Shown: positions 45,206 through 56,756, numbered from the stretch's first letter. The stretch is 64,000 nucleotides of DNA from Escherichia coli (GCF_003334385.1 NZ_QOWN01000012.1); one strand, 5' to 3'. Notes: generated by a model from the sequence alone, not told the origin. Translations and numbers: made by a program.

Positions 45206-45784
45206 CTAAATTTCAGTATACCTTTCCTTCGCTGTAATAAAGTCGTCCGGAGTATCAATATCTAAAATTATTTCTGCATTTTCTATTTCGACGGAATAAT
45301 GATCTCCCATAAGGAGTGCCTGACGCATATTGGTGACATTGGGTCGTTGGATTGCCTGCATCAGGCATGGTTTTGACACTAAAATCGGATGGCCGGGGAT
45401 GCCATTATGGAGTGGCAGTATTGCGCCATCATTTCGTAACGACCAGATTTTTCTAAAAATATCGATGGTGAGGGTTGGCATGTCACCGTGGGTGAGAAAA
45501 CAATGTTCTGTTTGCACTGCGGGTACTGCGGCCTTGACGGATGTTAGTAAACCCTGCGCATAATCTGGGTTGTGAATAATAGTGATATTGCTCTGGTTCG
45601 CATAACGTTCGTGCAGTTCATTACCACGATAGCCGGTGACTAAAATAATTCGGCTACAAAACTGCAACGCATTTTTGATACTTGTATCAAGAATTGTTCC
45701 CTGTTCCCAGGGTAACATCATTTTCCATTGCCCCATTCTTGATGATAATCCGGCAGCGGTAATTATACAGTCGATGGCTGACAT
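45206..45784 (-). CDS. mocA: molybdenum cofactor cytidylyltransferase MocA (192 aa)
   Basis: MSAIDCIITAAGLSSRMGQWKMMLPW, with the MobA-like NTP-transferase motif. Recognised as YgfJ. Confidence 0.92.
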   Translation of the reverse strand: MSAIDCIITAAGLSSRMGQWKMMLPWEQGTILDTSIKNALQFCSRIILVTGYRGNELHERYANQSNITIIHNPDYAQGLLTSVKAAVPAVQTEHCFLTHGDMPTLTIDIFRKIWSLRNDGAILPLHNGIPGHPILVSKPCLMQAIQRPNVTNMRQALLMGDHYSVEIENAEIILDIDTPDDFITAKERYTEI

Positions 45785-45886: not shown

Positions 45887-46657
45887 GTGAAAAGTATAGT
45901 TGACCCATCGGCATTAGTCATTGATTTAGGTGCGCAGAAACGTCCCACTGTGATTTCTGTTGTTGGTGCTGGGGGGAAAACCAGCTTGCTTTTTTGGCTG
46001 GCAGAACTGCTCCAGGCTAGCGGCAGGCGTGTGTTAATCACGACGACGACACATATGTTTATGCCAACGTCTCACTGGCCCGTGGTTTTCTGTCGTGATC
46101 CCGCCATGCTTCCTCATGCGTCTCTTACATCCCCCATTTCATTTTGTTTTCACAGTTGGAAAGCGAACCAGGGAAAAGTGCAGGGATTTACGCCAGAAGC
46201 GATTGATGCACTGGTGCAACGACCAGAGTGTGACGTAATTCTCATTGAAGCAGATGGCTCGCGTGGAATGCCGTTAAAAGCGCCTGATGAGCACGAACCT
46301 TGCATACCCAAAAGCAGTTGCTGCGTGATTGCTGTGATGGGAGGACATACTTTGGGCGCGAAAGTGAGCACAGAAAATGTCCATCGCTGGTCGCAGTTTG
46401 CTGATATTACCGGGTTAACACCTGATGCAACCTTGCAACTGAGCGATCTCGTTGCGCTGGTTCGCCACCCTCAGGGGGCGTTTAAAAACGTACCGCAAGG
46501 TTGTCGGCGAGTCTGGTTCATTAACCGTTTTTCTCAATGTGAGAATGCGATTGCACAAAGCGAGCTCCTTCAACCGCTGCAACAACACGACGTAGAGGCA
46601 ATCTGGCTGGGCGATATACAAGAACATCCTGCAATCGCGCGCAGATTTGTGAATTAG
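45887..46657 (+). CDS. yqeC: selenium-dependent Mo-hydroxylase accessory protein YqeC (256 aa)
   Basis: GTG start. P-loop-like VVGAGGKTS. Recognised. Confidence 0.88.
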   Translation: MKSIVDPSALVIDLGAQKRPTVISVVGAGGKTSLLFWLAELLQASGRRVLITTTTHMFMPTSHWPVVFCRDPAMLPHASLTSPISFCFHSWKANQGKVQGFTPEAIDALVQRPECDVILIEADGSRGMPLKAPDEHEPCIPKSSCCVIAVMGGHTLGAKVSTENVHRWSQFADITGLTPDATLQLSDLVALVRHPQGAFKNVPQGCRRVWFINRFSQCENAIAQSELLQPLQQHDVEAIWLGDIQEHPAIARRFVN

Positions 46658-46704
46658 CGGCCCGGGTATTCCGGGTTACTGAAAGGATATCCATTGAGGT
46701 TGGT

Positions 46705-48330
46705 ATGAATATTTTCACAGAGGCTGCAAAACTCGAAGAGCAAAATTGTCCGTTTGCTATGGCGCAAATTGTTGATAGCCGAGGCTCGACTCCCCGCCAT
46801 TCTGCACAAATGTTAGTGCGCGCCGATGGTTCTATCGTCGGTACAATTGGTGGCGGAATGGTTGAGCGGAAGGTGATTGAAGAGTCGCTTCAGGCATTGC
46901 AGGAACGTAAGCCGCGATTATTCCATGGACGTATGGCTCGTAACGGTGCGGATGCTGTCGGGTCAGATTGTGGAGGTGCAATGTCAGTATTTATCAGCGT
47001 CCATGGTATGCGTCCACGTCTGGTGTTGATTGGCGCGGGGCATGTCAACCGGGCGATAGCCCAGAGTGCGGCGCTATTAGGATTTGATATTGCCGTTGCT
47101 GATATTTATCGCGAAAGCCTCAATCCTGAACTATTCCCACCATCAACCACGCTTCTCCATGCTGAGTCGTTTGGTGCGGCAGTGGAAGCACTGGATATTC
47201 GCCCTGATAATTTTGTCCTGATTGCCACGAATAATCAGGATCGTGAAGCCCTCGACAAACTCATTGAACAGCCCATTGCATGGTTGGGGTTGCTGGCAAG
47301 TCGTCGCAAGGTTCAGCTTTTCCTGCGTCAATTGCGTGAGAAAGGCGTGGCTGAAGAACATATTGCCCGTTTACATGCGCCCGTTGGTTACAACATAGGT
47401 GCGGAAACGCCGCAGGAGATCGCCATCAGCGTGCTGGCAGAAATATTACAGGTGAAAAATAACGCGCCGGGTGGGCTGATGATGAAACCTTCTCATCCTT
47501 CCGGACACCAGCTGGTGGTGATTCGCGGTGCGGGAGATATCGCCAGTGGTGTGGCGCTACGTCTGTATCATGCGGGTTTTAAAGTGATCATGCTGGAAGT
47601 GGAAAAACCGACAGTGATTCGTTGTACCGTGGCGTTTGCCCAGGCCGTGTTCGATGGCGAAATGACGGTCGAAGGCGTCACTGCTCGCCTGGCAACCAGC
47701 TCTGCGGAAGCGATGAAACTTACCGAACGCGGATTCATTCCTGTGATGGTAGATCCCGCCTGTTCATTGCTTGATGAACTGAAACCGCTTTGCGTGGTGG
47801 ACGCTATTCTGGCGAAACAGAATTTGGGAACGCGGGCAGATATGGCACCAGTAACAATCGCGCTTGGGCCGGGCTTTACTGCTGGGAAGGATTGTCATGC
47901 GGTAATTGAAACAAATCGCGGGCACTGGCTCGGTCAGGTGATTTACTCTGGTTGTGCGCAGGAGAATACCGGTGTTCCTGGCAATATTATGGGGCATACC
48001 ACCCGACGGGTGATCCGTGCTCCTGCTGCAGGCATTATGCGATCCAACGTGAAATTAGGCGATCTGGTGAAAGAGGGCGATGTGATTGCCTGGATTGGTG
48101 AGCATGAAATTAAAGCACCGTTGACGGGGATGGTGCGTGGCTTGTTGAACGACGGCCTGGCAGTGGTTGGTGGTTTTAAAATTGGTGATATCGATCCTCG
48201 TGGTGAAACCGCTGATTTCACCAGCGTTTCTGATAAAGCCCGGGCGATTGGCGGCGGCGTACTTGAGGCGTTAATGATGTTGATGCATCAGGGCGTGAAA
48301 GCGACAAAAGAAGTGCTGGAAGTGGCTTAA
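46705..48330 (+). CDS. yqeB: XdhC/CoxI-like Mo-hydroxylase maturation protein YqeB (541 aa)
   Basis: 541-aa ORF MNIFTEAAKLEEQNCPFAMAQIVDSRGSTPRH (XdhC N-domain plus Rossmann domains). Recognised. Confidence 0.9.
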   Translation: MNIFTEAAKLEEQNCPFAMAQIVDSRGSTPRHSAQMLVRADGSIVGTIGGGMVERKVIEESLQALQERKPRLFHGRMARNGADAVGSDCGGAMSVFISVHGMRPRLVLIGAGHVNRAIAQSAALLGFDIAVADIYRESLNPELFPPSTTLLHAESFGAAVEALDIRPDNFVLIATNNQDREALDKLIEQPIAWLGLLASRRKVQLFLRQLREKGVAEEHIARLHAPVGYNIGAETPQEIAISVLAEILQVKNNAPGGLMMKPSHPSGHQLVVIRGAGDIASGVALRLYHAGFKVIMLEVEKPTVIRCTVAFAQAVFDGEMTVEGVTARLATSSAEAMKLTERGFIPVMVDPACSLLDELKPLCVVDAILAKQNLGTRADMAPVTIALGPGFTAGKDCHAVIETNRGHWLGQVIYSGCAQENTGVPGNIMGHTTRRVIRAPAAGIMRSNVKLGDLVKEGDVIAWIGEHEIKAPLTGMVRGLLNDGLAVVGGFKIGDIDPRGETADFTSVSDKARAIGGGVLEALMMLMHQGVKATKEVLEVA

Positions 48331-48338
48331 ATGAAAAT

Positions 48339-48364
48339 GGCCGGATGGTATTACCCACCCGGCC
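48339..48364. terminator. hairpin between convergent yqeB and yqeA
   Basis: GGCCGGATGG...CCCACCCGGCC, an imperfect stem. Confidence 0.55.
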
Positions 48365-48370
48365 TTTAAA

Positions 48371-49303
48371 TTACTGACAAATCACCGTTCCTGTTTTGCC
48401 TTCAATCCCTTCTTTCGCTTTGCTCAATACGGTAATCAGTGCTTCACGACCTGCGCGAGAGCGAGCAAACGAGGCGGCAGCTTCCACTTTAGGCAGCATA
48501 GAACCTTTCGCAAAATGACCTTCTTCGATAAAGCGTTCAGCATCACTTAATGACAGGCGATCGAGCCACTGTTCATTCTCTTTACCGAAGTTAATGGCCA
48601 CTTTTTCTACCGCAGTCAGAATGATCAGCATATCGGCATCAATCATTTCTGCTAAACGGGCGCTGGCCCAGTCTTTATCGATAACCGCGCTGGCACCACG
48701 CAGATGGTTACCTTCACGAATAACAGGGATACCACCACCGCCAACGGTGATCACCACCTGACCTGCATCTACCAGAGCTTTAACCGTTTCTTTTTCAATG
48801 ATATCAACCGGTTTTGGCGAGGCAACAACACGGCGATAGCCGCGACCAGCATCTTCTTTCAGAGTGTAACCCTGTTTTGTCAGTTGCTCTGCTTCTTGCT
48901 CGGTAAAGAACGAACCGATCGGCTTGGTCGGGTTGAGGAATGCCGGATCGTTAGCGTCGACTTCGACCTGAGTAACCAGCGTTGCTACAGGTTTATTAAT
49001 GCCCCGAGAAAGCAGTTCTTCTCTTAAAGCGTTTTGTAGATCGTAACCAATATAACCCTGGCTTAATGCAACACAGACAGACATCGGCAGCATTGGCGAG
49101 TGCGCTTCAGTTTTTGCGGCAGCTTCAAAGGCCTGGTTAATCATGCCCACCTGCGGCCCGTTACCATGAGTGACGATAACTTCATGTCCCTGGGCAATTA
49201 AATCAACAATTGCCTGAGAAGTAATTTTTACCGCTTTCATTTGCCCGGCCAGGTCATCGCCCAGCGCATTCCCGCCCAGGGCGAGAACAATTTTCTTACT
49301 CAT
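48371..49303 (-). CDS. yqeA: carbamate kinase-like protein YqeA (310 aa)
   Basis: MSKKIVLALGGNALG..HGNGPQVG, the carbamate kinase signature. Recognised. Confidence 0.93.
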   Translation of the reverse strand: MSKKIVLALGGNALGDDLAGQMKAVKITSQAIVDLIAQGHEVIVTHGNGPQVGMINQAFEAAAKTEAHSPMLPMSVCVALSQGYIGYDLQNALREELLSRGINKPVATLVTQVEVDANDPAFLNPTKPIGSFFTEQEAEQLTKQGYTLKEDAGRGYRRVVASPKPVDIIEKETVKALVDAGQVVITVGGGGIPVIREGNHLRGASAVIDKDWASARLAEMIDADMLIILTAVEKVAINFGKENEQWLDRLSLSDAERFIEEGHFAKGSMLPKVEAAASFARSRAGREALITVLSKAKEGIEGKTGTVICQ

Positions 49304-49350
49304 TTTTCCTCACTCATCATTCTTGATTGTGTATAGATCCCTGGCAGTGG

Positions 49351-50736
49351 TTAGAGCACGGGAGGGACAAACGGTTTGCGTCGCAGGAAACGACCTCGCC
49401 CGGCTTTGCCTGTAAAGGTGCCGTCACAGAAAATCGTTTCACCACGGGATAAGGTTCTGACAATCGCGCCCTGACAGGTAAAACCCTCCCATGGCGAGTA
49501 GTCGGCGTTGTCGTGGAGATGGCGATGCTGAATTTGTTGGCTCTGACGTGGGTCGATAATCACCACGTCGCCGTCGGAACCGGGCGCTAATAATCCTTTT
49601 TGCGGCCACAGGCCAAACAACCTGGCGGGCATTGCGCTGGTTAATTCAACAAAGCGTTCCGGTGTTATACGTCCCGTCATCACGCCACTGGAAAACAGTA
49701 ACTGCATGCGGTTTTCCACACCGGGTAAGCCATTTGGGCAGCGACTGAAATCGCCTTTAGAAATTTGCAGGCGTTGAGCCATCGAGAAGGTGCAGTGATC
49801 GGTTGCCACCACGTCAATCGCACCATCGCTGATGCCACACCACAGTTTGTCCTGCTCGCGTACGTTACGCAGCGGTGGGCTAAGAATGAACTTCATGCCA
49901 TCTTCTGTATCGTAACTGCGTTCGTCCAACAGGAGATATTGTGGGCAGGTTTCAACCCAGACTGGCTGGTGATTCGCACGGGCAAGACGCAGATAATCCA
50001 GACCTAAGCCGTTAGACAGGTGCACGATATAGAGCGGGGCGTTACCGGCAATTTGTGCCAGGTTAATCATGCGGGCGATGGCTTCCGCTTCGCATTCCAG
50101 AGGGCGACTCAAGGCATGATAGCGCGGCGCGGTTAACCCTGCGGCGATAAATTCCGCCCGCTTGCTGGCGATAGCCGCATCATTTTCCGGGTGCACGGTG
50201 GTCAGCGCGCCGGATTCATGCAAGCGGCGTAATGCCTGCAAAACCTCGTCATCGTTGAGTTTGTATTGATAGGTTAAATAGAGTTTAAAACTGCTCAGTC
50301 CTTCCTCGACCATCATCGGGATTTCGTCGAGGATTGCGTGATTAATGTGCTGGATCACACCGTGAAAGCTGTAATCGATGACCGCTTTATGGGCGGCATA
50401 ACCACGATAAACCTCCAGTTGATGGCGTAACCGACAGCCGTTTGGGCCAAATCCCATATGGTCAATAATGGTTGTTGTACCGCCACACGCAGCTGCGCGG
50501 GTACCGGTAAAAAAATCATCACAACTGCGCGCGATGCCGACATCAATATTGAAATGCGTATGGACATCCACGCCGCCAGGGAAAACGTAACAGCCAGTGG
50601 CATCAATTTCTTCATACGGGAGCTGCGGCGAAATATTGTTGCCCAACTGGCGAACAATCCCGCTTTCAATCAGCAAATCCTGTTTGGCTTGTCCATCTGC
50701 GTTAACGACAGTGCCGTTTTTGATCAATACGCGCAT
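49351..50736 (-). CDS. hyuA: D-phenylhydantoinase / cyclic amidohydrolase HyuA (461 aa)
   Basis: ORF 49351..50748, recognised start MRVLIKNGTVVNADGQAKQDLLIE. Motif GGVDVHTHF. Confidence 0.93.
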   Translation of the reverse strand: MRVLIKNGTVVNADGQAKQDLLIESGIVRQLGNNISPQLPYEEIDATGCYVFPGGVDVHTHFNIDVGIARSCDDFFTGTRAAACGGTTTIIDHMGFGPNGCRLRHQLEVYRGYAAHKAVIDYSFHGVIQHINHAILDEIPMMVEEGLSSFKLYLTYQYKLNDDEVLQALRRLHESGALTTVHPENDAAIASKRAEFIAAGLTAPRYHALSRPLECEAEAIARMINLAQIAGNAPLYIVHLSNGLGLDYLRLARANHQPVWVETCPQYLLLDERSYDTEDGMKFILSPPLRNVREQDKLWCGISDGAIDVVATDHCTFSMAQRLQISKGDFSRCPNGLPGVENRMQLLFSSGVMTGRITPERFVELTSAMPARLFGLWPQKGLLAPGSDGDVVIIDPRQSQQIQHRHLHDNADYSPWEGFTCQGAIVRTLSRGETIFCDGTFTGKAGRGRFLRRKPFVPPVL

Positions 50737-50751
50737 AGCAAACTCCAAAAA

Positions 50752-50771
50752 CCCTCCGGCGAACCGGAGGG
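50752..50771 (-). terminator. terminator-like hairpin with U-run 15 nt before the hyuA start (possible attenuator)
   Basis: Minus strand CCCTCCGG-TTCG-CCGGAGGG followed by TTTTTGGAGTTTGCTATG. Confidence 0.45.
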
Positions 50772-50788
50772 GAATAAGTGAAGAGTAA

Positions 50789-52000
50789 TTACTCTGTTGC
50801 CAGCCAGCTTAACGGGATTGCAGCGTACATCGCGGCACAGGTCACCAGGTGAGATTTCCAGGTTTTTTCGTTAGGTGCATGCGCTTCAGGTTCTTTACCC
50901 GGGCCAAAGCCGATCACCGGAATGCCGTGACGGCCCATGATAGATACGCCGTTAGTTGAGAAGGTCCACTTATCAACAACCGGCGCTTTGCCAAACAGCC
51001 CTTCGTAGGCATTCACCAGTGCTTTAACGGTGAAGTGATCTTCTTCCACTTTCCAGGTCGGGAAGTAGCATTCGGTTGGGTAAACCAGGCCAGTCCAGGA
51101 CGGACGGTCGTAGTTGTACATAGAAACAACCGCGTTAGCTTTCTGTACTGCAGGCAGGGCGCGGATTTCGTCCAGCGCGCCTTCCCAGGTTTCGCCCCAG
51201 GTCAGACGACGGTCGATTGAAACTGCGCAGCTGTCTGCTACAGCGCAACGGCTTGGGGATGTGAAGAAGATTTCAGAAACGGTGAGGGTGCCTTTGCCGA
51301 GGAATTCGTCATAACCCAGACGTTGGGAGAGTTCTTGTAATTCGCCAAGAATCGGACCCATTTTGAAAATGGCGTTATCACCGCGTTCTGGTGCAGAACC
51401 GTGGCAGCTAACACCCTGAACATCAATACGAATTTCCATACGACCGCGCTGACCACGGTATACCTGGCAGTCGGTTGGTTCGGTACTGACCACAAATTCC
51501 GGGCGAATGCCGGATTGTTCAATAATGTACTGCCAGCACAGACCGTCGCAGTCTTCTTCCTGCACCGTACCGGTAACCAGCAGGGTATATTCATCTTCCA
51601 GACCGAGGTCTTTAATGATTTTACCGGCATAAACCATAGAGGCCATGCCACCTTCCTGGTCGGAAGTACCGCGACCACCAATCAGTTCATCAGTTTCCAT
51701 GCCTTCGTACGGATCGAAGTCCCAGTTTTTGATGTTGCCAATGCCGACGGTATCGATATGAGCGTCCATTGCCACCAGACGCGGGCCGTGGCCGATATAA
51801 CCGAGAACGTTGCCCATCGGGTCGATTTCAACTTTATCGAAGCCGACTTTTTCCATCTCTTCTTTAATACGATGTACTACGCGTTTCTCGTCGCAGCTTT
51901 CACTGGGAATAGCAACCATGTCGCGCAGGAAGCGAGTCATATCCGCCTGGTAATCTTTTGCTTTTTCAAGAATCAGTTTGAATGGAATATTCTTAGCCAT
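50789..52000 (-). CDS. ygeY: M20-family amidohydrolase/peptidase YgeY (403 aa)
   Basis: 403-aa [38 protein letters not shown], ArgE/DapE/ACY1 type. Recognised. Confidence 0.92.
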
Positions 52001-52057
52001 TATTTTTCTCCAGATTTTTTACTCCCCGTTTTGCAGGGAGCAGTTCCAATAGGGTGA

Positions 52058-53254
52058 TTAAGGTGCTACAGCGTGTTTGCCTTCCCAGACAACTTCGCGG
52101 TAGTGCTTCACGTCGGTGTCGCCTTCAGTGCTGATAACCAGCACCACGGCATCTTTGTTCAGCGCCAGTTTTTCCATCAGGCTTTGACGTTGCGGGTGAT
52201 AATGAACCGCTGCGAGAACGCCCAAACCGACAGCGCCGGATTCACCGGAGATGATGCGCGGGTCGTTGCCGTACGGATTACCCAGCACGCGCATACCTAA
52301 TGCGGCAACGCTGTCCTGGCAGGAGATGAATTGGGTGGCGCAGTTACGTAGGATTTCCCAGCCCAGCGGGTTAGGTTCGCCACAGGCCAGGCCTGCCATG
52401 ATGGTGGCCATATCACCGCCAACGTTGACGATGTCGCCTTTGACGCCGGAGCGATAAATACAGTCAGCTTTGTCAGGTTCAACAATAATGCTGTGCAGAT
52501 TTTGCGGGCTATAGACGTCGACCAGATAACCCAGCACACCACCGGCCATTGCTCCGACACCGGCTTGCAGCAGAACGTGCGTCGGGGTTACGCCCATTTC
52601 ACGCATTTGCTCGACGGCTTCATCTGCCAGGGTTGCGTAGCCTTGCATGATCCAGGTTGGGATTTTGGTGTAACCTTCCCATGCCGTGTCCTGTACCACT
52701 TCCCAGCCGTGCTGCTGCGCGTGTTGCATGGTCAGGCGAACGGTATCGTCATAGTTCATATCCGTGACGATGCACTCGGCACCGAGGTTCAGAATGGCGT
52801 CAACGCGTTCCTGAGCAGAACCTTTCGGCATGTAAATCACCGCATTCTGTCCGAGTTGCTGTGCTGCCCACGCCACACCGCGCCCGTGGTTGCCGTCGGT
52901 GGTGGTCGCGAAAGTCATTTTTTCGCCGATGGCATTTTTCAGGTGCTCAAATGACAGCGTTTCGATATCAAGATGATATTTTTCACACAATAATTGAGCG
53001 ATGGCGTACGCACCGCCAAGCATTTTGAAGGCGTTCAGACCGAATCGTTTTGATTCGTCTTTGACGAGAATTTTCTTCACACCAAAAAGGTTTGCGAGAT
53101 CGTCCAGCGCACAAAGCGGTGTTGGGCGATAACCAGCTATTTTCTGGTGGAACTGGCGCGCCAGTTTGGCCTGGCTTTGCGAAAAGAGCGGTGATGTTTC
53201 GCCGTTGAAAAATTTGTTATCGGCGATATCAATCTTCAATGAGAAAACGGACAT
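52058..53254 (-). CDS. ygeX: 2,3-diaminopropionate ammonia-lyase (PLP) (398 aa)
   Basis: 398-aa ORF MSVFSLKIDIADNKFFNGETSPLF with the PLP-lysine context KDESKRFGLNAFKMLGG. Recognised. Confidence 0.93.
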   Translation of the reverse strand: MSVFSLKIDIADNKFFNGETSPLFSQSQAKLARQFHQKIAGYRPTPLCALDDLANLFGVKKILVKDESKRFGLNAFKMLGGAYAIAQLLCEKYHLDIETLSFEHLKNAIGEKMTFATTTDGNHGRGVAWAAQQLGQNAVIYMPKGSAQERVDAILNLGAECIVTDMNYDDTVRLTMQHAQQHGWEVVQDTAWEGYTKIPTWIMQGYATLADEAVEQMREMGVTPTHVLLQAGVGAMAGGVLGYLVDVYSPQNLHSIIVEPDKADCIYRSGVKGDIVNVGGDMATIMAGLACGEPNPLGWEILRNCATQFISCQDSVAALGMRVLGNPYGNDPRIISGESGAVGLGVLAAVHYHPQRQSLMEKLALNKDAVVLVISTEGDTDVKHYREVVWEGKHAVAP

Positions 53255-53311
53255 ATCCTATCCTTTTGGCCTCTGGAAATAGAGGGCCGACCAGCTGATC
53301 GGCCCGAGGGG

Positions 53312-54502
53312 TTATTTCACGCGTTCTTGCGCTTCTTTCAGCAGTTGCTCGAGCAGTGCACCTGGTTTGGCGTATTTACGGGACAGGATCATCGCGGCGA
53401 TGATATAAGGCTTCCAGCTGGCTTCTTTGTAGGTAGCGATACGGTATTTTTCGAATACGCCTTCAGTCACTTCACCTTCTTTACAGGATACGCCGCTGAT
53501 ATCAGCTGGCAGGCAGTGCATGTACAGGGCTTCGCCATCACGGGTCAGTTCCATCATCTCTTCAGTACAATGCCAGTCTTTGTGTTGCGCGTTCTGTGCC
53601 AGACACTGTTTTTCCAGTGCTTTTAAGCCTTCGTGATCGTTCGCACGCAGCAATTCAGTACGCTCTTCCATCACTTTGTAAGGTGCCCATGACTTCGGAT
53701 AAACGATGTCTGCGTCTTTGAAGGCTTCTTCCATGCTGGTGACCTGACGGAAGCTACCACCGGAGGCTTTAGCATTGTTTTTCGCCACTTCAACCACATC
53801 CGGGATCAGGTCGTAGCCTTCCGGATGGGCCAGGGTGACATCCATACCGAAGCGAGTCATCAGACCGATGATGCCTTGTGGTACAGAGAGCGGTTTGCCA
53901 TAGCTTGGAGAGTAGGCCCAGGTCATGGCGATTTTTTTACCTTTCAGGTTTTCCAGTGAACCAAAGTGTTCACGTAACCACGCGAGGTCAGCCATTGACT
54001 GAGTCGGGTGGTCAATATCGCATTGCAGGTTCACTAAAGCCGGACGCTGTGGCAGTACACCCTGCTTGTAACCGTCATCAAGTGCAGCGCCAACTTCACG
54101 CATATAGGCGTTGCCTGCGCCCAGATACATATCGTCGCGAATACCAATAGCGTCGGCGCAGAAGGAGATCATATTGGCGGTTTCACGCACGGTTTCGCCG
54201 TGAGCGATTTGTGATTTGCCTTCGTCGAGATCTTGTTGTGCAAGGCCGAGCAGGTTAAGCGCGGAAGCATAAGAGAAGCGGGTACGGGTGGAGTTGTCGC
54301 GGAATACGGAAATACCTAATCCACTATTAAAGACTTTGGTTGAGATGTTTTCAGCACGCAGTGCTTTTAATGCTGCGGCAACGTCCAGTACTTGTTTCAG
54401 TTCATCTGGCGTCTGTTCCCACGTTAACAAAAAATCTTTCTCGTGAAGGTGAGAGGTCAGCGAATTGATATCCTTAATCAGCTCATTAACAGTTTTCATC
54501 AT
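53312..54502 (-). CDS. ygeW: knotted carbamoyltransferase YgeW (396 aa)
   Basis: 396-aa ORF MMKTVNELIKDINSLTSHLHEKDFLLTWEQ with the STRTR carbamoyl-phosphate motif. Recognised. Confidence 0.93.
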   Translation of the reverse strand: MMKTVNELIKDINSLTSHLHEKDFLLTWEQTPDELKQVLDVAAALKALRAENISTKVFNSGLGISVFRDNSTRTRFSYASALNLLGLAQQDLDEGKSQIAHGETVRETANMISFCADAIGIRDDMYLGAGNAYMREVGAALDDGYKQGVLPQRPALVNLQCDIDHPTQSMADLAWLREHFGSLENLKGKKIAMTWAYSPSYGKPLSVPQGIIGLMTRFGMDVTLAHPEGYDLIPDVVEVAKNNAKASGGSFRQVTSMEEAFKDADIVYPKSWAPYKVMEERTELLRANDHEGLKALEKQCLAQNAQHKDWHCTEEMMELTRDGEALYMHCLPADISGVSCKEGEVTEGVFEKYRIATYKEASWKPYIIAAMILSRKYAKPGALLEQLLKEAQERVK

Positions 54503-54592: not shown

Positions 54593-54608
54593 AACAATAA
54601 GTGTGCCA
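54593..54608 (-). promoter_or_regulatory. weak sigma54-like element upstream of ygeW
   Basis: Minus strand TGGCAC-ACTTA-TTGTT. The -24 element is perfect, but the -12 element reads GT where GC is expected. Confidence 0.25.
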
Positions 54609-54977: not shown

Positions 54978-56756
54978 ATGGAGCTTGCTACTACGCAGTC
55001 AGTATTGATGCAAATTCAACCGACAATTCAGCGTTTTGCCAGAATGCTTGCCAGCGTTTTGCAGCTTGAGGTTGAGATCGTTGATGAAAACTTGTGTCGC
55101 GTTGCCGGAACGGGCGCGTATGGGAAGTTTCTTGGTCGCCAGTTGAGCGGCAACTCACGCCTGCTCCGCCACGTCCTGGAAACGAAAACTGAAAAAGTTG
55201 TGACACAGTCTCGCTTCGATCCCCTTTGCGAAGGTTGCGATAGTAAAGAAAATTGCCGCGAAAAAGCATTTCTGGGTACGCCTGTCATTTTACAGGATCG
55301 TTGTGTTGGGGTGATAAGTTTGATTGCCGTTACCCACGAGCAACAAGAGCATATCAGTGATAATTTACGCGAATTTTCTGATTATGTTCGCCATATATCC
55401 ACCATTTTTGTTTCGAAACTTCTGGAGGATCAGGGGCCAGGAGATAACATCAGTAAAATATTTGCGACCATGATCGATAATATGGATCAGGGCGTATTAG
55501 TTGTAGATGATGAAAATCGGGTTCAGTTTGTTAATCAGACTGCCTTAAAAACACTTGGTGTTGTGCAAAATAATATTATTGGGAAACCTATCCGTTTCAG
55601 ACCATTAACATTTGAGAGTAATTTTACCCATGGACATATGCAGCATATTGTTTCATGGGACGATAAAAGTGAATTAATCATTGGTCAATTGCATAACATT
55701 CAGGGCCGACAATTATTTTTAATGGCGTTTCACCAATCGCATACCAGTTTTTCTGTAGCAAATGCACCTGATGAACCGCATATTGAACAATTGGTTGGCG
55801 AGTGCCGTGTTATGCGGCAATTAAAACGACTCATTAGCCGTATTGCACCCAGCCCATCCAGCGTTATGGTGGTTGGTGAAAGCGGCACGGGTAAAGAAGT
55901 CGTCGCCCGTGCAATCCATAAGTTGAGCGGAAGACGGAATAAACCCTTTATTGCTATCAACTGTGCCGCGATTCCGGAGCAGCTTCTGGAGAGCGAACTG
56001 TTCGGTTATGTTAAAGGTGCATTTACTGGCGCTTCTGCCAACGGTAAAACAGGGTTGATTCAGGCGGCGAATACGGGCACGCTGTTTCTCGATGAAATAG
56101 GTGATATGCCATTAATGTTGCAGGCTAAATTACTGCGCGCTATTGAGGCACGTGAAATTCTGCCGATTGGTGCCAGTAGCCCAATACAAGTCGACATTCG
56201 CATCATTTCTGCAACTAATCAGAATTTGGCCCAGTTCATTGCCGAAGGTAAATTCCGCGAAGATCTCTTCTACCGACTTAATGTTATCCCGATAACTCTG
56301 CCACCGCTGCGTGAACGTCAGGAAGATATTGAACTATTGGTGCATTACTTTTTACATCTGCATACCCGTCGTCTGGGATCGGTTTATCCTGGCATTGCTC
56401 CCGATGTCGTCGAAATATTGCGTAAGCATCGTTGGCCCGGAAACCTGCGCGAGTTAAGCAATTTGATGGAATATCTGGTTAACGTGGTTCCTTCAGGTGA
56501 AGTTATCGACAGCACGCTATTGCCGCCAAATCTGCTGAATAATGGCACAACGGAGCAAAGTGATGTAACAGAGGTCAGTGAGGCGCACCTGTCACTCGAT
56601 GATGCGGGCGGCACGGCGCTGGAGGAGATGGAAAAGCAAATGATCCGCGAGGCGCTTTCACGTCATAACAGCAAGAAGCAAGTTGCTGATGAACTGGGCA
56701 TCGGCATTGCTACGCTCTATCGCAAGATTAAGAAATATGAGTTGTTAAACACATAA
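54978..56756 (+). CDS. ygeV: sigma54-dependent transcriptional activator YgeV (592 aa)
   Basis: AAA+ core with Walker A GESGTGKE and the sigma54-contact motif GAFTGA, plus a C-terminal HTH (IGIATLYRKIKKY). Recognised. Confidence 0.95.
   Translation: MELATTQSVLMQIQPTIQRFARMLASVLQLEVEIVDENLCRVAGTGAYGKFLGRQLSGNSRLLRHVLETKTEKVVTQSRFDPLCEGCDSKENCREKAFLGTPVILQDRCVGVISLIAVTHEQQEHISDNLREFSDYVRHISTIFVSKLLEDQGPGDNISKIFATMIDNMDQGVLVVDDENRVQFVNQTALKTLGVVQNNIIGKPIRFRPLTFESNFTHGHMQHIVSWDDKSELIIGQLHNIQGRQLFLMAFHQSHTSFSVANAPDEPHIEQLVGECRVMRQLKRLISRIAPSPSSVMVVGESGTGKEVVARAIHKLSGRRNKPFIAINCAAIPEQLLESELFGYVKGAFTGASANGKTGLIQAANTGTLFLDEIGDMPLMLQAKLLRAIEAREILPIGASSPIQVDIRIISATNQNLAQFIAEGKFREDLFYRLNVIPITLPPLRERQEDIELLVHYFLHLHTRRLGSVYPGIAPDVVEILRKHRWPGNLRELSNLMEYLVNVVPSGEVIDSTLLPPNLLNNGTTEQSDVTEVSEAHLSLDDAGGTALEEMEKQMIREALSRHNSKKQVADELGIGIATLYRKIKKYELLNT

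Follow-up and report, generated by a model that had tools for sequence, protein, structure and literature searches.

In a 64,000-nucleotide stretch of Escherichia coli DNA (GCF_003334385.1 NZ_QOWN01000012.1; the whole stretch is called the window hereafter), positions 48371–54502 hold the five genes ygeW, ygeX, ygeY, hyuA, and yqeA, whose products very probably carry out the lower half of the anaerobic reductive degradation of uric acid, in which energy is conserved, with probable expression from a sigma-54 promoter under the divergently encoded YgeV. At the heart of this scheme stand YgeW, a knotted carbamoyltransferase, and YqeA, a carbamate kinase. An earlier note, made from the sequence alone, had described YgeW as an orphan enzyme and had proposed that it phosphorolyses a ureido derivative of diaminopropionate, that YqeA turns the resulting carbamoyl phosphate into ATP, and that YgeX uses the diaminopropionate. 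This finding is real and was correctly read from the sequence, and it was already known: in 2025 two laboratories reported reconstitution of the anaerobic urate pathway with E. coli enzymes (Liu et al. 2025, bioRxiv 10.1101/2025.04.24.650524; Li et al. 2025, Life Metab, PMC12507026), and their results bear out all three proposed roles. With its activity published, YgeW is an orphan no longer.

The pathway, known as the "2,8-dioxopurine" or "reductive" uric-acid pathway and encoded in E. coli K-12 by b2870–b2874 for the part treated here, is reported to remove about a third of human urate through gut bacteria, and work is under way to build it into probiotics against hyperuricaemia and gout. 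It is because of the YgeW–YqeA step that bacteria gain energy from urate. This medical significance belongs to the 2025 papers. What a reading from sequence alone achieved was to reach the correct substrate class independently, and what the present analysis adds is a cross-species synteny table, together with a conserved sigma-54 element and intercistronic hairpins as regulatory features that can be mapped. The scientific point that remains live is which of the two ureido groups YgeW cleaves.

The pathway and its published biochemistry

In the proposed scheme, the upper half of the pathway, encoded just downstream in the window by xdhD–ygfM, ygfK, and ssnA (Table 1), would take urate to ureidomethylhydantoin; according to published work, the enzymes XdhD-YgfM, YgfK, and SsnA carry urate through reduction to 2,8-dioxopurine, loss of aromaticity, and opening of the six-membered ring to give this compound. 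HyuA would then open the hydantoin ring of ureidomethylhydantoin to form 2,3-diureidopropionate, the substrate of YgeW. Running catabolically, the knotted transcarbamylase YgeW would use phosphate to release one ureido group as carbamoyl phosphate, from which YqeA would form ATP and carbamate with ADP, so that one ATP per urate would be gained by substrate-level phosphorylation. The other ureido group would be hydrolysed by YgeY, an amidohydrolase of the M20 family, to leave 2,3-diaminopropionate, and YgeX, a lyase dependent on pyridoxal phosphate (PLP), would convert this to pyruvate and ammonia.

Each of these enzymatic steps, as well as the coupling to ATP, is established by published experiments. 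Liu et al. (2025) reported that HyuA opens the ureido-substituted hydantoin to 2,3-diureidopropanoate, that YgeW takes this to a mono-ureido-aminopropanoate, and that YgeY and then YgeX carry the product through 2,3-diaminopropanoate to pyruvate; the whole pathway ran in vitro from urate to pyruvate with a yield of about 50%. When YgeW and YqeA were combined with enzymatically made 2,3-diureidopropionate, Mg, and ADP, ATP and the mono-ureido product were formed, whereas either enzyme singly gave minimal ATP only (Liu et al. 2025). The earlier note had put forward this very assay, in which YqeA is coupled to YgeW and the conversion of ADP to ATP is read out. Li et al. (2025) converted ureidomethylhydantoin to mono-ureido-diaminopropionate with HyuA, YgeW, and phosphate, and from there to pyruvate with YgeY and YgeX, and a commentary summarises both papers. 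In addition, ygeX mutants of E. coli and C. sporogenes are reported to build up diaminopropionate, and urate to induce these genes. The suggestion that HyuA and YgeY make the substrate of YgeW holds for HyuA, which makes the di-ureido compound, but not for YgeY, which acts after YgeW.

Some points weigh against the scheme as drawn. The two papers disagree on the regiochemistry of YgeW, and the commentary lists this point as unsettled. Only a small product peak was obtained with YgeW, for which Li et al. (2025) blame the unfavourable thermodynamics of phosphorolysis, and the commentary finds no published kinetic constants. Outside the Gammaproteobacteria, a kinase lies within 10 kb of ygeW in only six of the 29 loci compared below. 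Finally, a single five-gene transcript is only presumed: three of the four gaps carry a hairpin, and TTTTT follows the one behind ygeY. Nothing that we found contradicts the overall scheme.

Identity of the five proteins

The identities of the proteins were judged by the curated cut-offs of NCBIfam, by Pfam domains, and by searches against solved structures in the PDB. All five exceed the curated NCBIfam cut-offs for their families (YgeW, DpaL, YgeY, D-hydantoinase, and carbamate kinase), with consistent Pfam domains.

YgeW scores 825 bits against NF005538 (cut-off 453) and 675 bits against TIGR03316 (cut-off 500), and aligns over its full length, residues 1–396, to PDB 3Q98 with an E-value of 5.9e-270. 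The family score and the identity with the solved E. coli protein make it a knotted carbamoyltransferase of the YgeW type (YTCase). It also belongs to the wider transcarbamylase superfamily, that is, the fold of aspartate transcarbamylase (ATC) and ornithine transcarbamylase (OTC), since it carries the SxRT, HPxQ, and HxLP motifs and both Pfam domains above cut-off (PF02729, 86.6 bits; PF00185, 70.9 bits). The carbamoyl-phosphate motif STRTR named in the earlier note is found at residues 71–75, followed by HPTQ at 165 and HCLP at 329. A structural review of 2015 lists S71, T72, R73, T74, R122, H165, Q168, C330, and L331 as the carbamoyl-phosphate residues of YgeW, and all nine are present at those positions in the protein of the window. 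The trefoil knot, in which C-terminal residues are threaded through a proline-rich loop, is known from the published structure and the review, which describes the fold as knotted and like those of N-acetylornithine transcarbamylase (AOTCase) and N-succinylornithine transcarbamylase (SOTCase), with a pocket that is larger and more polar.

The families with known second substrates fit poorly. The protein lacks both DxxxSMG and SMG and reaches 133 bits against the OTC model TIGR00658, where the cut-off is 280.85. Aspartate is bound in ATC by R167, R229, and Q231. In YgeW the RxQ motif is missing, and the ATC models give 71 bits (TIGR00670, cut-off 236.95) and 74.6 bits (NF002032, cut-off 263). 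Similarly low are the scores for putrescine transcarbamylase (PTC; TIGR04384, 107.9 bits, cut-off 500) and for the AOTCase model (129 bits, cut-off 288). Because the OTC, ATC, and PTC models fail and DxxxSMG is absent, the statement that YgeW is unlike these enzymes in its second-substrate region is correct; it has been known since the crystal structure 3Q98 of 2011.

The other four proteins are assigned with similar clarity. YgeX is a diaminopropionate ammonia-lyase by its equivalog score (TIGR03528, 651 bits, cut-off 532) and by its identity with the solved enzyme (PDB 4D9G, full length, E-value 2e-274). HyuA belongs to the D-hydantoinase/dihydropyrimidinase family by the equivalog TIGR02033 (675.5 bits, cut-off 393.25), and its best PDB relatives are D-hydantoinases (E-value 1e-109). 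YqeA is a carbamate kinase of the ArcC family on score (TIGR00746, 385.6 bits, cut-off 358.25), on its amino-acid-kinase fold (PF00696; PDB carbamate kinases at 5.5e-90), and on its glycine-rich motifs: the signature GGNALG..HGNGPQVG reported in the earlier note is present, as LGGNALG at residues 9–15 and HGNGPQVG at 46–53, with GGGGIP at 188. YgeY falls in its own family of M20 hydrolases (TIGR03526, 721.6 bits, cut-off 321.5), with both the catalytic domain Peptidase_M20 (PF01546) and the dimerisation domain M20_dimer (PF07687). Its second-best family is that of the ArgE/DapE N-alpha-deacylases, below cut-off (TIGR01910, 183.7 bits against 217.6). The PDB search returned no solved structure of YgeY and no close solved relative at an E-value of 1e-20 or below; YgeY is also among the two enzymes with a disputed regiospecificity.

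Direction and site of the YgeW reaction

Two other functions have to be weighed for the YgeW–YqeA pair. Since the reaction can run both ways and thermodynamics do not favour phosphorolysis, one may argue that the pair runs anabolically, with YqeA making carbamoyl phosphate and YgeW carbamoylating a derivative of diaminopropionate. This is very improbable, given that ATP formation was measured directly (Liu et al. 2025), that the genes are induced by urate and lie among catabolic genes, that the biosynthetic enzymes which carbamoylate diaminopropionate form a separate, unknotted family (DPTCase), and that published isotope tracing reveals a net flux of urate carbon to pyruvate through these steps. 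Historically, the adjoining carbamate kinase also led to the prediction that YgeW serves as the oxamate transcarbamylase in the anaerobic breakdown of allantoin and takes its carbamoyl group from oxalurate. To this almost no credence can be given, as the E. coli enzyme with that activity is AllFGH, which is unrelated in sequence; published negative assays, together with the identification of AllFGH, rule the assignment out.

Within the catabolic scheme, the site of YgeW action is the point on which the two laboratories part. According to Liu et al. (2025), the 3-ureido group on the side chain leaves, giving 3-amino-2-ureidopropionate, from which YgeY then cuts the N-alpha-carbamoyl group. We give this assignment a little less than an even chance. 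The product was identified by retention time, m/z, and tandem mass spectrometry against synthesised standards (Liu et al. 2025, bioRxiv 10.1101/2025.04.24.650524), and several lines of homology point the same way. The nearest characterised relatives of YgeW, the knotted N-acetyl- and N-succinylornithine transcarbamylases, add a carbamoyl group to the side-chain amine of an amino acid that is acylated on N-alpha, which by homology would place YgeW on the side chain as well; the structural review puts K270 and Q160 of YgeW where AOTCase and SOTCase anchor the alpha-carboxylate; and the next-best family of YgeY, as described above, is that of N-alpha-deacylases. Taken jointly, these points parallel the order AOTCase-then-ArgE of the arginine pathway of Xanthomonas. 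However, the standards were prepared by treating diaminopropionate with urea, which carbamoylates it unselectively, and the text makes no mention of albizziin, whereas the product of Li et al. (2025) co-eluted with commercial albizziin, and YgeY and YgeX turned albizziin into pyruvate. Moreover, the side chain of diaminopropionate is two carbons shorter than that of ornithine, which makes the AOTCase analogy loose.

According to Li et al. (2025, PMC12507026), it is instead the 2-ureido group, on the alpha nitrogen, that leaves, giving 2-amino-3-ureidopropionate (albizziin), and YgeY then cuts the 3-ureido group. We hold this to have an even chance. Besides the co-elution with the commercial standard and the pyruvate formed from albizziin by YgeY and YgeX, the over-expressing strain CBT2.0 accumulates albizziin, C. 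difficile has a homologue of D-aminoacylase in place of YgeW, and HyuA, as a D-hydantoinase, yields an N-alpha-carbamoyl amino acid. Against this, a single liquid-chromatography system may fail to separate the two isomers despite the co-elution, the substrate was racemic and the product peak with YgeW small, and the homology of YgeW and YgeY to the ornithine enzymes and the deacylases points in the opposite direction. A literature search for later work that settles the regiochemistry returned none beyond Liu et al., Li et al., the commentary, and reviews. With homology arguments on both sides, the two assignments are rated about equal.

Promoter, hairpins, and transcription units

A sigma-54-type −24/−12 element lies upstream of ygeW (Table 1), with TTGT in its −12 box where the consensus has TTGC. 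The motif by itself is not significant, as the window holds two matches where 3.5 are expected; the weight of the element comes from its position, its conservation, and published RpoN binding. Of the 80 species loci compared below, 25 carry TGGCA[CT]-N5-TTGTT 5′ of ygeW, 24 of them at a distance of 81–120 nt and one at 224 nt, and the genera with this element are Escherichia, Citrobacter, Klebsiella, Pluralibacter, Hafnia, Morganella, Dryocola, and Mixta. In published work, genomic SELEX (systematic evolution of ligands by exponential enrichment) found that the RpoN holoenzyme binds the spacer holding this element in vitro, and a sigma-54 promoter has been reported for ygeWXY. The product of the divergent ygeV gene, to judge from its domain annotation, is a sigma-54 enhancer-binding protein and the putative activator of the cluster, and a published YgeV iModulon contains these genes. 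We infer from this that the genes are probably expressed from the sigma-54 promoter 5′ of ygeW with YgeV as activator, and that hairpins between the genes probably modulate read-through to the distal ones.

Three of the four intercistronic gaps contain a hairpin (Table 1), and the exception is the hyuA–yqeA gap, where none was detected. The hairpin after ygeW is conserved in 10 Enterobacterales, with compensatory changes on both sides at four of its eight pairs, and may be either a partial terminator or a stem that stabilises the mRNA. The hairpin after ygeY looks like a terminator. In the ygeY–hyuA gaps of other Enterobacterales, among those shown in full, a GC-rich inverted repeat of different sequence can be read by eye in the same place; a consensus made with MAFFT and RNAalifold gave no structure for this gap because the hairpins are out of register in the alignment. 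Overall, the intercistronic hairpins may determine how much of each of the five proteins is made relative to the others, either as partial terminators or by stabilising the mRNA.

The earlier note had called the five genes an operon with gaps of 47–57 nt. All five open reading frames are indeed co-directional, on the minus strand, and the gaps from ygeW to yqeA measure 57, 57, 52, and 47 nt; that they share a single transcript can only be inferred from this arrangement. The odds seem evenly divided as to whether they instead form two or three units (ygeW, or ygeWXY, and then hyuA–yqeA), or else a single unit with strong internal attenuation that sets protein levels. This would fit the terminator-like hairpins after ygeW and ygeY and the further hairpin after ygeX, the compensatory changes that keep the first of these, the recurrence of a GC hairpin of other sequence after ygeY in the Enterobacterales gaps shown in full, and the literature, which gives either "ygeW" alone or "ygeWXY" as the transcription unit. 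On the other side, the 52-nt gap before hyuA is too short for a promoter outside the ygeY coding sequence, and no sigma-70-like site was found in it; furthermore, in a published account, a promoter inserted 5′ of ygeW increased the expression of the "uricolytic genes". On present evidence, the likeliest layout would be a single transcript driven by sigma-54, part of which is terminated or processed at the hairpins.

Conservation across species

To the conservation within E. coli, where 5161 of 5426 complete genomes match at least 80% of the 6132-bp stretch 48371–54502 at 95% identity or more, a scan with YgeW across species was added, taking one genome per species. It comprises 80 loci, those most similar to the E. 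coli protein, of which 51 are gammaproteobacterial and 29 belong to other phyla, with no Bacillota; neighbours were called by tblastn with ten proteins of the window. The order ygeW–ygeX–ygeY–hyuA–yqeA is kept in 47–50 of the 51 gammaproteobacterial loci, with ygeX adjacent in 50, hyuA present in 49, and a kinase present in 47, which means that the arrangement is not due to chance. In addition, ygeV is divergent in 48 of the 51, and ygfK and ssnA are often next door. In Vibrionaceae, Shewanella, and Ferrimonas (loci L030–L041 and L056), the carbamate kinase in the fifth slot is 37–42% identical to YqeA, whereas the other four proteins are 63–85% identical to their E. coli counterparts, with YgeW at 82–85% in Vibrionaceae and Shewanella. 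This suggests that the kinase was replaced there by one of a different carbamate kinase lineage.

The 29 loci of other phyla (Bacteroidota, Verrucomicrobiota, Spirochaetota, Riflebacteria, and others; within L050–L081) have a YgeW that is 70–79% identical to the E. coli protein. The neighbour that ygeW constantly keeps here is ygeY, which directly adjoins it in the same orientation in 21 of the 29, and within 10 kb of ygeW there are matches to ygeX in two and to hyuA in one. Pfam scans of four such loci placed a ygeY–ygeW pair beside a molybdenum enzyme of the xanthine-dehydrogenase type (L073), a ygeY–ygeW pair alone among unrelated genes (L058), and ygeW on its own (L070 and L079). The tight linkage of ygeW and ygeY fits enzymes that catalyse consecutive steps of a pathway. 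The loose linkage of ygeW and the kinase outside the Gammaproteobacteria is unlike the situation in the gut strains of Liu et al. (2025), where the kinase lies within the urate cluster in 33 of 39; our sample is one without Bacillota. It is conceivable, if rather unlikely, that YgeW and YgeY form a two-enzyme module of greater age and broader use than the urate cluster of E. coli implies. If so, hosts of the stand-alone module might draw on ureido compounds other than those derived from urate, or forgo the conservation of ATP.

Relation to known systems

The genes are those of the E. coli K-12 locus ygeW–ygeX–ygeY–hyuA–yqeA, with no difference of substance. The arginine deiminase pathway, with its catabolic OTC and ArcC, follows the same logic, from phosphorolysis of a ureido compound through carbamoyl phosphate to ATP, with a kinase of the same family (TIGR00746), and Liu et al. 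(2025) also draw this comparison. The two systems differ in the transcarbamylase, since YgeW has the knotted fold and a different second-substrate site, fails the OTC models, and lacks DxxxSMG, and they differ in the substrate, which is 2,3-diureidopropionate for YgeW and citrulline in the arginine deiminase pathway. In the anaerobic allantoin pathway of the same organism, AllFGH and the carbamate kinase AllK/YbcF likewise turn a purine-derived ureido compound into carbamoyl phosphate and ATP. However, AllFGH has three subunits without sequence similarity to the ATC/OTC/YgeW family, and it belongs to the oxidative branch through allantoin.

AOTCase and SOTCase are the nearest structurally characterised relatives of YgeW, with carboxylate anchors equivalent to its K270 and Q160, and the likeness extends to the partner, as they work with an ArgE-type deacylase and YgeY is ArgE/DapE-like. 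Unlike YgeW, they are anabolic enzymes of arginine biosynthesis, and YgeW misses the AOTCase model by the wide interval given above. In the urate cluster of C. difficile, UacY, the homologue of D-aminoacylase, replaces both YgeW and YqeA and acts at the same position, taking one ureido group off 2,3-diureidopropionate; in contrast to the YgeW–YqeA route, this step is hydrolytic and irreversible and yields neither carbamoyl phosphate nor ATP.

The locus and its neighbourhood

The window is a piece of the E. coli chromosome, and the annotation across the 6132-bp stretch reads ygeW, dpaL (= ygeX), ygeY, hyuA, and arcC (= yqeA). Two starts need comment. The ygeW gene begins with ATGATG, of which RefSeq takes the second ATG, at 54499, while the first gives the 396-residue form with which the crystallised protein agrees. 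For hyuA, the reading frame, read mechanically, reaches a TTG at 50748, 12 nt 5′ of the annotated ATG.

Table 1. Positions of the genes and signals discussed, counted from the first letter of the window.
Feature	Position	Strand	Length	Description
ygeW	54502..53312	minus	396 aa	knotted carbamoyltransferase (YTCase)
ygeX/dpaL	53254..52058	minus	398 aa	PLP-dependent 2,3-diaminopropionate ammonia-lyase
ygeY	52000..50789	minus	403 aa	M20-family amidohydrolase
hyuA	50736..49351	minus	461 aa from annotated ATG	D-hydantoinase-type cyclic amidohydrolase
yqeA/arcC	49303..48371	minus	310 aa	carbamate kinase
sigma-54-type −24/−12 element	54593..54608	minus		TGGCACacttaTTGTT; 91 nt 5′ of the ygeW ATG; one mismatch to TGGCAC-N5-TTGCW
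ygeV	54978..56756	plus		divergent; annotated as sigma-54 interaction domain protein
hairpin after ygeW	53284..53305	minus		GC-rich, just past the ygeW stop; flagged by terminator scan; centroid energy −18.3 kcal/mol
hairpin in ygeX–ygeY gap	52020..52042	minus		−15.3 kcal/mol; z −2.8; 0 of 200 shuffles fold as well; no U-tract
hairpin in ygeY–hyuA gap	50752..50771	minus		CCCTCCGGttcgCCGGAGGG, then TTTTT; flagged by terminator scan; z −2.8
terminator hairpin common to convergent yqeA and yqeB	48339..48364	minus		strong; −22.6 kcal/mol; z −5.5; flagged by terminator scan
upstream half of urate pathway	36758..44884	minus		open reading frames translated without stops; names per annotated record
xdhD	36758–39628	minus
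ygfM	39625–40404	minus
ssnA	40455–41783	minus
ygfK	41786–44884	minus

Between the two halves of the urate pathway lie yqeC, yqeB, and mocA, at 45887–48330 (plus strand) and 45206–45784 (minus strand). The first two are annotated as genes of selenium-dependent molybdenum cofactor biosynthesis and mocA as molybdenum cofactor cytidylyltransferase, and this neighbourhood probably accounts for the label "selenium metabolism-linked" carried by YgeY.

Two other loci depart from this layout in ways worth recording. In Shigella flexneri (L004), ygeW, ygeX, and yqeA are intact, but ygeY is matched at just 80% identity and hyuA has no match that covers half its length or more. The urate pathway appears to be in decay there. 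In strain L73 (locus L001, 19781–20000), an insert of 180 bp with REP-type sequences lies between the convergent yqeB and yqeA, and the terminator hairpin, GGCCGGATGGTATTACCCACCCGGCC, occurs a second time at its flank; the window, at 48331–48370, has the short form with a single hairpin and without this insert.

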